This document shows positions 50,501-56,500 of a stretch of DNA of 64,000 nucleotides, piece by piece. Made by a program: the position numbers. Origin of the DNA: Escherichia coli (GTDB lineage: Bacteria > Pseudomonadota > Gammaproteobacteria > Enterobacterales > Enterobacteriaceae). Location: assembly GCF_036507355.1 (NCBI RefSeq), contig NZ_AP027877.1; one strand, written 5' to 3'. How positions within the stretch are numbered: position 1 is the stretch's first letter; the number at the start of each line of letters is the position of its first letter.

Positions 50501-53500
50501 AAAACGACGCGGAAGGTGCTGAAGCCTGCATTAACGCCATCCGTGAACTGGCGAAGAAAGTGGATATCCCGGCAGGCCTACGCGACCTGAACGTGAAAGA
50601 AGAAGATTTCGCGGTTCTGGCGACTAATGCCCTGAAAGATGCCTGTGGCTTTACTAACCCGATCCAGGCAACTCACGAAGAAATTGTGGCGATTTATCGC
50701 GCCGCAATGTAATCATCATTCCAACAACGGCTGGCAAATTGTCAGCCGCTTTTTCAACTATCTCTGTAATCCTTGCCCGTAAATTCGTGATAGCCGTCGT
50801 AAAGCTGTTACCGACTGGCGAAGATTTCGCCAGTCACGTCTACCCTTGTTATACCTCACACCGCAAGGAGACGATCATGACCAACAATCCCCCTTCAGCA
50901 CGTGTTCAGCCCGGCGAGTATGGTTTTCCTCTTAAGTTAAAAGCACGCTACGACAACTTTATCGGCGGCGAGTGGGTCGCGCCTGCCGACGGTGAGTATT
51001 ACCAGAACCTGACGCCGGTGACCGGGCAGCTGCTGTGCGAAGTGGCGTCTTCGGGCAAACGAGACATAGATCTGGCGCTGGATGCTGCGCACAAAGTGAA
51101 AGATAAATGGGCGCACACCTCGGTGCAGGATCGCGCGGCGATTCTGTTTAAGATTGCCGATCGAATGGAACAAAACCTCGAGCTGTTAGCGACAGCTGAA
51201 ACCTGGGATAACGGCAAACCCATTCGCGAAACCAGTGCTGCGGATGTACCGCTGGCGATTGACCATTTCCGCTATTTCGCCTCGTGTATTCGGGCGCAGG
51301 AAGGTGGGATCAGTGAAGTTGATAGCGAAACCGTGGCCTATCATTTCCATGAACCGTTAGGCGTGGTGGGGCAGATTATCCCGTGGAACTTCCCGCTGCT
51401 GATGGCGAGCTGGAAAATGGCTCCCGCGCTGGCGGCGGGCAACTGTGTGGTGCTGAAACCCGCACGTCTTACCCCGCTTTCTGTACTGCTGCTAATGGAA
51501 ATTGTCGGTGATTTACTGCCGCCGGGCGTGGTGAACGTGGTCAATGGCGCAGGTGGGGAAATTGGCGAATATCTGGCGACCTCGAAACGCATCGCCAAAG
51601 TGGCGTTTACCGGCTCAACGGAAGTGGGCCAACAAATTATGCAATACGCAACGCAAAACATTATTCCGGTGACGCTGGAGCTGGGCGGTAAGTCGCCAAA
51701 TATCTTCTTTGCTGATGTGATGGATGAAGAAGATGCCTTTTTCGATAAAGCGCTGGAAGGCTTTGCACTGTTTGCCTTTAACCAGGGCGAAGTTTGCACC
51801 TGTCCGAGTCGTGCCTTAGTGCAGGAGTCAATCTACGAACGCTTTATGGAACGCGCCATCCGCCGTGTCGAAAGCATTCGCAGCGGTAACCCACTCGACA
51901 GCGTGACGCAAATGGGCGCGCAGGTTTCTCACGGGCAACTGGAAACCATCCTCAACTACATTGATATCGGTAAAAAAGAGGGCGCAGACGTGCTCACTGG
52001 CGGGCGGCGCAAGCTGCTGGAAGGCGAACTGAAAGACGGCTACTACCTTGAACCGACGATTCTGTTTGGTCAGAACAATATGCGCGTGTTCCAGGAGGAG
52101 ATTTTTGGCCCGGTGCTGGCGGTGACCACCTTCAAAACGATGGAAGAAGCGCTGGAGCTGGCGAACGATACGCAATATGGCCTGGGCGCGGGCGTCTGGA
52201 GCCGCAACGGTAATCTGGCCTATAAGATGGGGCGCGGCATACAGGCTGGGCGCGTGTGGACCAACTGTTATCACGCTTACCCGGCACATGCGGCGTTTGG
52301 TGGCTACAAACAATCAGGTATCGGTCGCGAAACCCACAAGATGATGCTGGAGCATTACCAGCAAACCAAGTGCCTGCTAGTGAGCTACTCAGATAAACCG
52401 TTGGGGCTGTTCTGATGTAAGAAGCTGGTCGCATCGGGTATTAATTGCCTGATGCGACGCTTACGCGTCTTATCATGCCTACGGGGACCTGACCGTAGGC
52501 CGGATAAGACGTACACGCCGCATCCGGCATAAACAAAGCGCACGTTGTTACAATTTACGTTTTAAACCTACGTGTGCAATAACCCAGACTACGCCAACAA
52601 AAGTGCGTTTCTGGGGCGTGTTTTGCCAGGAGTTTAATCTCGCGTTTCGATGGTGAGCGGGCAAACCAGACCGTAAATCACCATTGGTATTCCGAGGACA
52701 ATCAGCAATAAACGGTAGATTATTGAAGGTTTAATACGCTTAATCTGCATTGTGGATGTTTTACGGTTTTTAATCATAAATTTGGCCAATAGTTCCATTA
52801 TTTCAATATGATAAGCCTCGACCTGTTAAAAAGCCAGGCAGCACACTTCAGGAAGTATATAAAAAACAATATGTCGTTATATAAATAAGGAAATTGCACT
52901 GCATCATGGCATTTCATAATATGCGTTAATTGTTCTTTTTTATATTCTCTGAGGGAAATATGTTCCTGGACTATTTTGCACTGGGAGTGCTTATTTTTGT
53001 ATTTCTGGTGATATTCTATGGGATTATTATTTTACATGATATTCCCTACCTGATTGCTAAAAAACGTAATCATCCTCATGCCGACGCCATTCATGTTGCT
53101 GGTTGGGTGAGTCTTTTTACGCTGCATGTTATCTGGCCATTTTTGTGGATTTGGGCCACGCTTTACCGCCCGGAGCGGGGATGGGGAATGCAAAACCATG
53201 ACTCCTCCGTTGTGCAACTACAACAGCATATTGCCGGGCTGGAGAAACAGCTCGCCGACATCAAATCCTCTTCTGCCGAGTAATACTTATGGATTTACTG
53301 ATTATTTTGACCTATGTGGCTTTCGCATGGGCAATGTTTAAGATCTTCAAAATTCCCGTAAATAAATGGACCATTCCCACAGCGGCCCTGGGTGGAATAT
53401 TTATTGTCAGCGGTCTAATTCTGTTAATGAACTATAACCATCCGTATACCTTTAAAGCGCAAAAAGCGGTTATTTCTATTCCTGTTGTCCCACAGGTGAC

Positions 53501-56500
53501 TGGTGTGGTGATTGAAGTGACGGATAAGAAAAATACGCTGATTAAAAAAGGTGAGGTGCTATTTCGACTGGACCCGACGCGTTATCAGGCTCGGGTGGAT
53601 CGGCTGGTGGCGGATATCGTTACCGCAGAACATAAACAGCGGGCGTTGGGCGCAGAGTTAGATGAGATGGCGGCGAATACTCAGCAGGCAAAGGCCACGC
53701 GGGATAAATTCGCTAAAGAGTATCAGCGTTACGCACGTGGCAGCCAGGCGAAAGTAAACCCGTTTTCAGAACGCGATATCGATGTGGCGCGGCAAAATTA
53801 TCTGGCGCAGGAAGCCTCCGTAAAGTCATCGGCGGCGGAACAAAAACAGATCCAGAGCCAGCTGGATAGCCTGGTGTTGGGTGAACATTCTCAAATCGCC
53901 AGCCTGAAAGCGCAGCTCGCGGAAGCAAAATATAACCTTGAGCAGACGATAGTGCGTGCGCCGAGCGATGGTTATGTGACCCAGGTACTGATTCGTCCGG
54001 GTACCTATGCCGCGTCGCTGCCGCTACGTCCGGTGATGGTGTTTATACCCGATCAGAAACGACAAATCGTGGCGCAGTTCCGTCAGAACTCCTTGCTGCG
54101 ACTGGCTCCTGGCGACGATGCGGAAGTGGTGTTTAATGCTCTGCCAGGTAAGGTATTCAGCGGTAAGCTGGCAGCCATTAGTCCAGCCGTTCCCGGCGGA
54201 GCTTATCAGTCGACCGGCACCTTACAGACGTTAAACACAGCGCCGGGTTCAGATGGCGTTATCGCGACCATTGAACTGGATGAGCATACTGATTTGAGCG
54301 CATTACCAGACGGTATTTACGCCCAGGTGGCGGTCTACTCTGATCATTTCAGCCATGTCTCGGTGATGCGCAAAGTACTGTTACGCATGACCAGCTGGGT
54401 GCATTACCTTTATCTCGATCATTAATCTTCGCTTTCCGCCGCTTGTTCAGGCCGCAGTTGCTGCGACTGAGCAAGCTGGTGGCGAATTTCACGCAGCATT
54501 TCATCCAGCACATACTGGACCCGCCAGGGCTGGTATTCCCGTTTACGGAAGATAGCCACCAGATCCAGCCACCATTCATACGGGTGCTGAAGCAGGGCAC
54601 CAGCGTGCCGTCTTGCAGGTCGCTCTGCACACTTTTGTCTGGCGCAAACACAATCCCCAGGTGATTTCGTGCCAGCTCCAGCGCAGATTGCGTGTTGTCG
54701 CAAACGTAATTTCCCTTCACGCGATAATCCCGCACCTCTTTACTCCCGGCGACGTTGAAGCGCCAGATATTCGCGTCGTCGATCATCATCGAGTCGATCA
54801 AAATACAGGAGTGATGTTCGAGTTCGTCAGGACGGCTAATAGGATGTTTCTCAAGATAGCGCTGGCTGGCATAAGCGGTTACGGCATATTGTGTAATAAA
54901 ACTGGCAACCAGCGATTCATCTTTTGGTGGAGCGTAGCTGATTAAAACATCACAATCATCAGGAAATTCGACGCCTTCATAAAAGGCATTACGCTCAAGA
55001 TTGCAGGTTTTTAGCGATAAGGTTATATCACCGATATCTTTAATTTTATCGATTACATGTTTGGATAAATAGGTAATTATGCCGGTTGGGGCGTAGATGG
55101 TGACCCGACCACGTTTCTCATGCTTATAATCTGCAATAAAATTATTAAGCTGCTCGTTTCTGTCCAGCATGTCGTTGATGTACGGTAACAGCGCGGTACC
55201 AAAAGGTGTGAGCATCAGCTGCCGGGTGGTTCGGTCAAAGACTTTTAAACCCACTTTTGATTCAAAATCAGCAAGGTATTTGCTGACGTTGGCCTGTGCG
55301 ATGCCAAGTACAGTCGCGGCATGGCTGATATTTTCACTGGCAGCGATTACCGAGATAATTTTTAACTCCCGGTACTTAAGTTGTAATTTTGTCATCGCAA
55401 CAGCCCAATTATATATAATTTTATATATTACTATATAAATATGAATCTTGCACCGGAGAAATTGTAAGCATTACTATGCCGACTCTTTTTTATCTTATTT
55501 TAAAATGGAATACCGGACATGTTAATTAACCGCAATATTGTGGCGTTATTTGCGTTGCCTTTTATGGCAAGCGCAACTGCTTCTGAATTATCCATTGGTG
55601 CTGGTGCGGCTTATAATGAATCGCCTTATCGCGGTTATAATGAAAATACAAAGGCAATTCCCCTGATTAGTTATGAAGGTGATTCTTTTTATGTTCGTCA
55701 GACCACGTTAGGTTTTATTCTGTCGCAAAGTGAAAAAAATGAACTTAGCCTGACCGCATCCTGGATGCCGCTGGAATTTGACCCTGCCGATAATGACGAT
55801 TATGCCATGCAACAGCTTGATAAGCGTGATAGTACGGCTATGGCGGGGGTTGCCTGGTATCACCACGAGCGTTGGGGAACCGTGAAAGCCTCTGCAGCTG
55901 CGGACGTTCTGGATAACAGCAACGGCTGGGTGGGGGAGCTATCGGTATTCCACAAAATGCAGATAGGTCGTCTGTCGCTGACACCTGCGCTGGGCGTTCT
56001 CTATTATGACGAGAATTTCAGTGACTATTACTATGGCATTTCAGAGAGTGAGTCCCGTCGTAGCGGTCTGGCAAGTTATTCCGCGCAGGATGCCTGGGTG
56101 CCCTATGTCAGCCTGACGGCAAAATACCCGATAGGAGAGCACGTCGTATTGATGGCGAGCGCCGGATACAGCGAGCTGCCGGAAGAGATTACCGACAGCC
56201 CGATGATTGATCGTAATGAGAGTTTTACCTTTGTCACCGGCGTGAGCTGGCGTTTTTAATTCACCGGTGGATGTCGGTGCGGCTGGCCTACGCTCTCGCA
56301 CCGACTTGTATGCCTGATAAGACGTGTTAAGCGTCGCATCAGGCAATGTGCTCCTTACGTTGGATGCGGCGCGAGTGCCTTATCCAACCTACGGATGGCA
56401 ATGCTTTTCCTCATTCACCCAGATCCGCATTTCGCCTTCACCCCGGTTGGCCCAGCTAAACCATGGGATAAAGGTCAGAGTTTGCGTCTGGCGTTTGGCT

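Follow-up and report, generated by a model that had tools for sequence, protein, structure and literature searches.

Two DUF3302-adaptor gene pairs in the window

The window examined here is a 64,000-nt stretch of Escherichia coli DNA, and all coordinates refer to the full window. It carries two related two-gene modules, yiaW-yiaV and yibI-yibH, each of which encodes a small membrane protein of the DUF3302 family and a periplasmic adaptor. The gene order is mtlA, yibI, yibH, yibF, selA, selB, yiaY, aldB, yiaW, yiaV, yiaU, yiaT and then a GH127 gene. The two modules have the same orientation, with a start-to-start distance of 9,099 bp, and consist of the following genes, listed with those between them:

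yiaW, 52960-53283, plus strand: open reading frame (ORF) of 107 aa; DUF3302 protein with two transmembrane (TM) helices, a His-rich turn, a linker and a C-terminal amphipathic helix
yiaV, 53289-54425, plus strand: ORF of 378 aa starting 5 nt past the yiaW stop; periplasmic adaptor (membrane fusion protein)
yibI, 43861-44223, plus strand: 120 aa; yiaW paralogue with a longer linker and a C-terminal extension
yibH, 44226-45362, plus strand: 378 aa, starting 2 nt past the yibI stop; yiaV paralogue, the copy at the ancestral locus on the mtlA side
yibF, selA, selB, yiaY and aldB, 45433-52415, plus strand: genes between the two modules

YiaW and YibI shared 73% protein identity (E 1e-60). Over residues 1-78 the match was 73/78 (93.6%), and the only differences were D4N, I24A, L25I, V46T and R70Q. 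YiaV and YibH were 77% identical across 378 residues with zero gaps. The first-pass annotation had described yiaW-yiaV as a paralogous second DUF3302 plus HlyD module about 9 kb from the first, with small proteins nearly identical over the first ~76 residues and collinear 378-aa adaptors. The coordinates and alignments bear this out, and the five differences in 78 residues match the dotted consensus that it gave. The likeness includes the polar loop HDIPYLIAKKRNHPHADAIH and the entire periplasmic part of the adaptor, and thus extends beyond low-complexity TM segments. RefSeq and the K-12 annotation already carry yiaW, yiaV, yibI and yibH as DUF3302 or HlyD family genes; with names and families already annotated, the paralogy observation is correct but not new.

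Divergence and selection

Nucleotide identity between the modules was ~70%. Nonsynonymous divergence (dN) was 0.18-0.19, synonymous divergence (dS) was saturated (1.5 to >2, or not computable), and dN/dS between the paralogues was ~0.1. Third-position identity was 0.37-0.57 in every interval of the paralogue comparison except the last (0.70). Saturated dS, together with the low nucleotide identity and the presence of both copies in Citrobacter and Pseudocitrobacter, agrees with the ancient duplication proposed in the first pass.

The 93.6% identical block of YiaW and YibI abuts a divergent tail, a pattern that recent gene conversion between the two loci might produce. This explanation was rejected for the DUF3302 core on third-position identity and dS: the yiaW and yibI cores had a nucleotide identity of 0.74-0.83, a third-position identity of 0.40-0.57 and a dS of at least 1.2 or saturated, and conservation of this core extends across phyla. 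Low third-position identity and saturated dS across a near-identical core indicate that purifying selection, not gene conversion, keeps the proteins alike, and we regard recent conversion as hardly credible. The last 33 codons of yiaV and yibH (54326-54425 and 45263-45362) differed from the rest in their higher third-position identity (0.70) and lower dS (0.92), which might reflect a short, ancient conversion tract or additional constraint on the conserved C-terminal helix.

Comparison of orthologues gave lower values. Between Escherichia and Citrobacter or Pseudocitrobacter, dN/dS was 0.02-0.05 for yiaV and yibH wherever dS could be estimated, and between the window and K-12 it was 0.03 for yiaV and 0.08 for yiaW. 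Both copies have intact reading frames and dN/dS values well below 1, as in duplicates retained under selection, and neither is a decaying pseudogene. The upstream regions of yiaW and yibI, read side by side with no formal alignment, showed no obvious similarity, suggesting that the duplication did not carry the promoter region.

The DUF3302 proteins

YiaW scored 147 bits against Pfam PF11742 (gathering score 32 bits), covering profile positions 1-77 of 77, and YibI scored 140 bits. The family comprised 869 clusters at 50% identity among 1.84 billion representatives. Representatives across phyla were 43-78% identical to YiaW and shared the core YGIIAIHDIPYxIAKxRNHPHQDAIHxAGWVSLFTLHxIWPFLWIWA, in which nine residues are invariant. 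An AlphaFold2 model of YiaW, with a mean confidence (pLDDT) of 90.5, predicted helices at residues 2-35 and 41-68 that form a hairpin with the turn RNHPH, then a flexible linker and a helix at 80-106. Foldseek comparison of this model with the PDB returned no match with E below 6, and a DUF3302 profile search of the PDB returned only chance-level rhodopsin matches.

The two paralogues had been said to diverge only in the tail. The tails do differ, in linker length and in the YibI extension, but they are not unrelated: the helix motif L..R[VI]..LE.[KQ]L follows the variable-length linker in every orthologue of both paralogues. YiaW has the short 107-aa form also seen in Serratia, Yersinia, Buttiauxella and Trabulsiella, and in the core genera the YibI linker is longer by 3-11 residues and the protein is extended at its C-terminus (…STFPEI in Escherichia). 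Compared with K-12, YiaW of the window carries S79N, M84V and R89H; residue 89 is Arg in all other aligned orthologues.

The tail had also been called cytoplasmic, and this is probably wrong. Positively charged residues are found in the DUF3302 loop (KKR) and between the two membrane helices of the adaptor (K residues). In addition, a single 403-aa ORF on one metagenome contig (L127, OKVO01000779.1, 1299-2510) contains a complete DUF3302 domain (2-106) joined to an adaptor (116-400). This ORF may be a genuine gene fusion or the product of a sequencing indel; a genuine fusion would establish how the two proteins are oriented relative to each other. Taken together, the positive-inside rule and the fusion suggest that the His-rich loop is cytoplasmic and that the tail helix is probably periplasmic.

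The adaptor proteins

YiaV matched the Pfam domains CusB_dom_1 (56.3 bits, cut-off 26.5), HlyD_D23 (44.5, cut-off 30) and HlyD_3 (26.6, cut-off 22.2). In its predicted layout, a pair of membrane helices at the N-terminus precedes a long alpha-hairpin, a beta-barrel and a conserved C-terminal helix. The AlphaFold2 model of YiaV, built with 31 orthologues, was poor overall (pLDDT 58.8), and its secondary structure alone was therefore used, with no fold search; the hairpin helices were placed at 97-152 and 161-218, with pLDDT there mostly 72-87. The nearest solved structure was EmrA (PDB 8zar, E 1e-11), aligned over residues 53-298.

YiaV scored 111.4 bits on the EmrA/EmrK model (TIGR00998, cut-off 390.8) and on the MdtN model (NF007785, cut-off 376), below both thresholds. 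YibH scored 113.5 and 110.9 bits on these two models, again below the cut-offs, and the AaeA equivalog model gave YiaV 62.5 bits, short of its cut-off of 400. Among 32 diverse adaptors encoded next to DUF3302 genes, the most conserved regions were the N-terminus (…MNYNHP, two predicted membrane helices) and the C-terminal helix RKVLLRM.SW.NYLF..H. These membrane-proximal segments were better conserved than the periplasmic hairpin.

Gene context across phyla

To survey gene context, 92 further loci were collected from contig look-ups and a metagenome scan and grouped into 65 clusters at 85% identity, of which 52 had the at least 400 nt of downstream sequence needed to look for an adaptor gene. 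An adaptor gene started within a few nucleotides of the DUF3302 stop in 51/52 of these informative clusters. The sole exception (L154, 5749-6477) has a DUF3302 ORF joined to the last ~20 residues of an adaptor (…IRRILLRMRSWQNYIFMEGH) and looks like an internal-deletion remnant of the adaptor gene. DUF3302 and this special adaptor subfamily thus form an inseparable gene pair across phyla.

Outside Enterobacterales, a TolC-family outer-membrane (OEP) gene was directly adjacent to the pair in 9/65 clusters, in the order OEP-DUF3302-adaptor or DUF3302-adaptor-OEP; examples are L093, L094 (a metagenome-assembled genome of Reichenbachiella, Bacteroidota), L095 and L096. A cation:proton antiporter gene (PF00999, ~400 aa) was adjacent in 6/65 clusters (L085, L095, L097, L104, L121 and L137), in three arrangements. 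Five of these antiporters have NhaP2/CvrA-like membrane domains and one is CPA2/YbaL-like.

No ATP-binding cassette (ABC), resistance-nodulation-division (RND) or FUSC pump recurred in the DUF3302-adaptor operons of the 65 clusters. A major facilitator superfamily (MFS) gene lay just downstream of the pair at L136. No transporter gene accompanied yiaWV, yibIH, the Serratia and Yersinia pairs or almost all of the metagenomic loci. At L095, a FUSC-OEP-DUF1656-AaeA-like operon lies 2 kb from a DUF3302-adaptor-OEP operon, and the presence of both indicates two separate systems.

A putative efflux-like assembly

Taking context, paralogy and predicted structure together, we favour with moderate confidence a reading in which yiaWV is a younger duplicate of yibIH and each is a two-gene operon for a DUF3302 protein and a dedicated EmrA-like adaptor, which would act in an efflux-like assembly with an outer-membrane factor (OMF). 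The DUF3302 protein would be the obligate inner-membrane partner of the adaptor, and the two may associate in a membrane complex via the DUF3302 hairpin and the double anchor of the adaptor. With an OMF, this complex would span the envelope, using a dedicated OEP in other phyla and presumably TolC in E. coli. DUF3302 might then take the place normally held by the pump, with its His-rich loop facing the cytoplasm and its tail helix predicted to lie beside the adaptor on the periplasmic side. Between the two E. coli copies, the difference is probably one of expression, partner or substrate rather than of basic mechanism.

This proposed assembly resembles known tripartite systems and departs from each of them. 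YiaV and YibH obtained their best scores (111-113 bits) on the EmrA/EmrK and MdtN models, and EmrA 8zar is the nearest structure. As in EmrAB-TolC and its relatives EmrKY and MdtNOP, they have a membrane anchor, lipoyl-like and beta-barrel domains and a long alpha-hairpin, and in other phyla an OEP gene lies in the operon. Unlike these systems, the DUF3302-adaptor operon lacks an MFS or FUSC pump gene, and the model scores are far below the cut-offs (111 vs 391 and 376). The YiaV-type adaptor has two N-terminal membrane helices instead of one and an extra conserved C-terminal helix, and always has a DUF3302 partner.

The AaeXAB and YdhIJK systems share with yiaWV the placement of a gene for a small two-helix membrane protein directly before the adaptor gene, and YiaV and AaeA are 21% identical (E 3e-14). 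Homology of DUF3302 to AaeX/DUF1656 was considered and rejected: BLASTP gave no alignment of YiaW with AaeX, and the hhalign probability was 0.2%. The AaeXAB arrangement itself was absent from yiaWV, which has no DUF1656 partner, no adjacent FUSC gene encoding an AaeB-type pump and an adaptor scoring 62.5 of the 400 bits needed for AaeA; as noted, L095 carries both kinds of operon separately.

In being a small inner-membrane protein tied to a component of a tripartite system, DUF3302 also recalls AcrZ and AcrB. AcrZ is a single helix that binds the pump and not the adaptor, and its gene lies away from the pump genes. DUF3302 differs in its two helices and tail helix, in its strong conservation across phyla and in having its gene always immediately upstream of the adaptor gene.

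The closest characterised adaptors, EmrA, MdtN and AaeA, all work with a pump, and the YiaV-type adaptor may likewise serve a transporter encoded elsewhere (MFS, ABC, FUSC or cation:proton antiporter), with DUF3302 as a small accessory subunit comparable to AcrZ in AcrB or AaeX in AaeAB. The PF00999 gene adjacent in 6/65 clusters, in three arrangements and from two subfamilies, is far above chance adjacency and argues for such a partner, as does the MFS gene beside the pair at L136. Most loci, including all Enterobacterales examined, nevertheless have no nearby transporter gene. DUF3302 is far more conserved (43-78% to YiaW, nine invariant residues) than known accessory peptides, its gene is never separated from the adaptor gene, and it has no homology to AaeX/DUF1656. 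We regard an unlinked pump as possible rather than probable. Between translocation by DUF3302 itself and recruitment by the pair of an unlinked transporter, for example a cation:proton antiporter, we give the former a slight edge.

A bolder form of the efflux-like reading, which we put forward only tentatively, is that DUF3302 may form the core, in the inner membrane, of a class of envelope-spanning systems not recognised so far, in which a ring of DUF3302 hairpins and adaptor anchors would lead to a TolC-family channel, either pump-free or coupled to an antiporter. E. coli would then carry two such systems, a core yibIH and an accessory yiaWV.

Several points weigh against the favoured reading of a younger duplicate and an efflux-like assembly. 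About two thirds of the loci with long context, including all those from Enterobacterales, have no OEP gene nearby. A two-helix translocator would be unprecedented. The AlphaFold2 model of YiaV is poor, as stated above, and the L127 ORF used for topology is known from a single metagenome contig and may reflect a sequencing indel. The neighbour-joining (NJ) trees used for the duplication (below) were built from simple distances and may misplace the long YiaV branch, and the one for DUF3302 is unresolved; transfer within the family could have given the same pattern as local duplication. From the literature, an IS1 insertion in yiaW arose during macrophage adaptation and its reconstructed disruption had no phenotype in the macrophage assay (PMC5495878), and yibH has been used as a neutral integration site (PMC5852967).

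The literature found assigns no function to yibI, yibH, yiaW or yiaV, the first two of which are among the E. coli genes that a published compilation gives as uncharacterised (PMC11551758). In the full-text literature searched, DUF3302 was named in only two papers, and in the title or abstract of neither. The phenotypes reported are scattered: yibI was induced in urine and its deletion gave a competitive index of 0.33 in UTI89 in urine (PMC5404293); deletion of yiaW is cited in PMC12844161 as raising CaCl2 transformation efficiency; and deletion of yibH in Klebsiella lowered plaque formation and plating of evolved phages (PMC11796411). The efflux-like reading, if true, would explain these effects on urine fitness, transformation efficiency and phage plating as envelope phenotypes, and would add a new architecture to bacterial envelope transport. 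What is new here is the conserved DUF3302-adaptor(-OMF) architecture lacking a canonical pump, an uncharacterised variant of tripartite envelope systems. The context survey turns the vague label "HlyD family secretion protein" into a testable proposal, that DUF3302, small and highly conserved, is the constant partner of one adaptor subfamily, with an outer-membrane channel gene often beside the pair and a classical pump gene almost never.

Distribution in E. coli

Among 5,426 complete E. coli genomes, yibIH was found in 5,406 (99.6%) and yiaWV in 3,800, being absent from 1,626 (~30%). In E. coli, yibIH is therefore core and yiaWV accessory. The description of two retained copies holds for the ~70% of genomes with yiaWV, but not for the remainder. 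The boundaries of the variable block and its yiaU and yiaT genes are as follows:

aldB-yiaW intergenic region, 52416-52959: 41% GC; repetitive extragenic palindromic (REP) elements at ~52430-52530 form one boundary of the yiaWVUT block
yiaU (lpsR), 54349-55395, minus strand: LysR-type regulator, a pseudogene here, from alignment to K-12 yiaU and direct sequence reading
yiaT, 55519-56259, plus strand: MipA/OmpV-family outer-membrane protein, divergent from yiaU; Pfam MipA 177.7 bits
REP elements 3' of yiaT, 56260-56400 (REP 56290-56400): the other boundary of the yiaWVUT block

In the sequence type 131 (ST131) genome examined, the GH127 gene comes straight after aldB, with none of the yiaWVUT block present; other low-coverage matches have the same aldB-GH127 arrangement. 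At the ST131 junction the sequence switches from the aldB-side REP to the yiaT-side REP with a 3.8-kb block missing, and the joined REP regions suggest REP-mediated deletion or insertion. This core and accessory split provides natural single-copy E. coli strains, such as ST131, for genetic tests.

The neighbouring yiaY-aldB interval also varies. The ST131 genome has a Fic-family gene between yiaY and aldB (L003, 575-1870) that is absent from the window, and some other genomes lacking yiaWVUT have hicAB toxin-antitoxin and type I restriction genes at the same site.

Origin of the yiaWV copy

A scan of one genome per species yielded 514 related loci, and the best 80 of 514 were analysed for synteny. 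The yibIH pair adjoins mtlA in Escherichia, Citrobacter, Enterobacter, Lelliottia, Leclercia, Klebsiella, Raoultella, Trabulsiella and Yokenella. The Kluyvera pair has kept yibF and selAB downstream, with no mtlA match within the stretch analysed. Among the loci sampled, only those of Escherichia, Citrobacter and Pseudocitrobacter have yiaW-yiaV-yiaU-yiaT after aldB. Enterobacter and Lelliottia lack yiaWV at this place and have yiaU and then yiaT straight after aldB, and in Serratia and Yersinia the pair stands alone amid unrelated genes.

The YiaV clade was monophyletic in 100% of NJ bootstrap replicates and had a long branch. In 90% of replicates all Enterobacteriaceae copies formed a group that left out Buttiauxella, Edaphovirga and Yersiniaceae. 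The branching point of YiaV with respect to the core-genus radiation had weak support (67.5%), and the NJ tree of DUF3302 was unresolved. In relative-rate tests with Serratia, Yersinia and Buttiauxella outgroups, YiaV had 40-45 lineage-specific changes vs 16-17 in YibH (p 0.0002-0.002). With Trabulsiella as outgroup the counts were 38 vs 24 (p 0.075, not significant), and for the small proteins YiaW and YibI the trend was reversed and not significant. The first-pass annotation had suggested sub-functionalisation; the pattern observed is one of unequal divergence between the adaptors. The yibIH pair beside mtlA is the ancestral copy, and yiaWV is the younger one, with a faster-evolved YiaV.

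The most economical reading of these sequence patterns is a segmental duplication inside the Enterobacteriaceae that would have put the second copy 9 kb further downstream without a change of orientation. Base composition raises another explanation, that yiaWV came by horizontal transfer from another Enterobacteriaceae lineage, possibly within the yiaWVUT block. GC content at third codon positions was 0.48 for yiaW, 0.54 for yiaV, 0.55 for yiaU and 0.50 for yiaT, lower than in yibI (0.62), yibH (0.61) and aldB (0.63) and below the neighbours' range of 0.59-0.63. The block is also REP-flanked and variably present; YiaW has the short tail of the outgroups, when the yib-locus tails are longer in most Enterobacteriaceae genera sampled; and the YiaV clade branches below the core YibH radiation. 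Against transfer, 90% of bootstrap replicates place that clade within Enterobacteriaceae. The copy is 9 kb away from the original and matches it in orientation, its syntenic neighbourhood is shared by three genera, and it has no flanking mobility genes. The occurrence of yiaU-yiaT in Enterobacter without yiaWV indicates, moreover, that the four genes did not arrive as one unit. We consider transfer rather doubtful.

yiaU inactivation and regulation

The first-pass annotation reported yiaU as frameshifted, and alignment with K-12 located the lesion: a TTT run at 54590-54591 (minus strand) has lost one T. The final ~56 residues are changed by the frameshift, and the reading frame ends at 54349 instead of 54422. 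The intact stop at 54422 would overlap the yiaV stop by 4 nt, the two genes being convergent. In XJ34, the closest database genome, yiaU (L001, 13823-14797, minus strand) is interrupted by a nonsense codon at position 160. As this lesion arose independently of the window's frameshift, yiaU has been inactivated more than once.

These lesions, the absence of yiaWV from ~30% of E. coli genomes and R89H in the window's YiaW, at a position that is otherwise Arg in aligned orthologues, could be signs that yiaWV, at least in this strain, is redundant and on its way to being lost; the IS1 insertion in yiaW from experimental evolution, phenotype-free when reconstructed (PMC5495878), points the same way. 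Both ORFs are intact, however, dN/dS is low against K-12 (0.03 for yiaV and 0.08 for yiaW) and, for yiaV, against Citrobacter and Pseudocitrobacter (0.02-0.05), and the pair is conserved in three genera, all of which makes drift towards loss unlikely.

The first-pass annotation also named yiaU as a candidate regulator of yiaWV. Were YiaU a dedicated regulator of yiaWV, its frameshift would silence or deregulate the module in this strain. In favour of such a role, genes close to a LysR regulator are usually its targets, yiaU adjoins and convergently overlaps yiaV, and the ST131 genome examined lacks yiaWVUT as a unit. However, yiaU is convergent with yiaV and divergent from yiaT, and yiaU-yiaT adjoin aldB without yiaWV in Enterobacter and Lelliottia. 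The targets of YiaU (LpsR) identified by ChIP-exo and RNA-seq include yiaT, the waa operon and adeP, and yiaW and yiaV are not mentioned in that paper (PMC9068703). A dedicated role in yiaWV control is thus improbable.

A promoter scan of 52400-55600 found sites no commoner than in shuffled sequence. Terminator-like sites in the same interval were above expectation but located within coding sequence, and an Rfam scan of 38000-58500 gave no matches.

Other features near the two modules

The AT-rich aldB-yiaW spacer contains a small hydrophobic ORF of 47-54 aa on the minus strand (52634-52798, …MQIKRIKPSIIYRLLLIVLGIPMVIYGLVCPLTIETRD) with no Pfam match. It corresponds to the hypothetical protein WP_152936587.1, present in several RefSeq E. 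coli genomes, and is unannotated in K-12. Between yibH and yibF the window has a 70-bp spacer (45362-45433); at this place K-12 (L002, 13956-22244) has rhsA, yibA, yibJ, yibG and several pseudogenes, ~8 kb in all. Past yiaT, from 56389-58383 (minus strand) and beyond, the window carries genes for a GH127 glycoside hydrolase and an MFS transporter, where K-12 has only the pseudogenes ysaC and ysaD.

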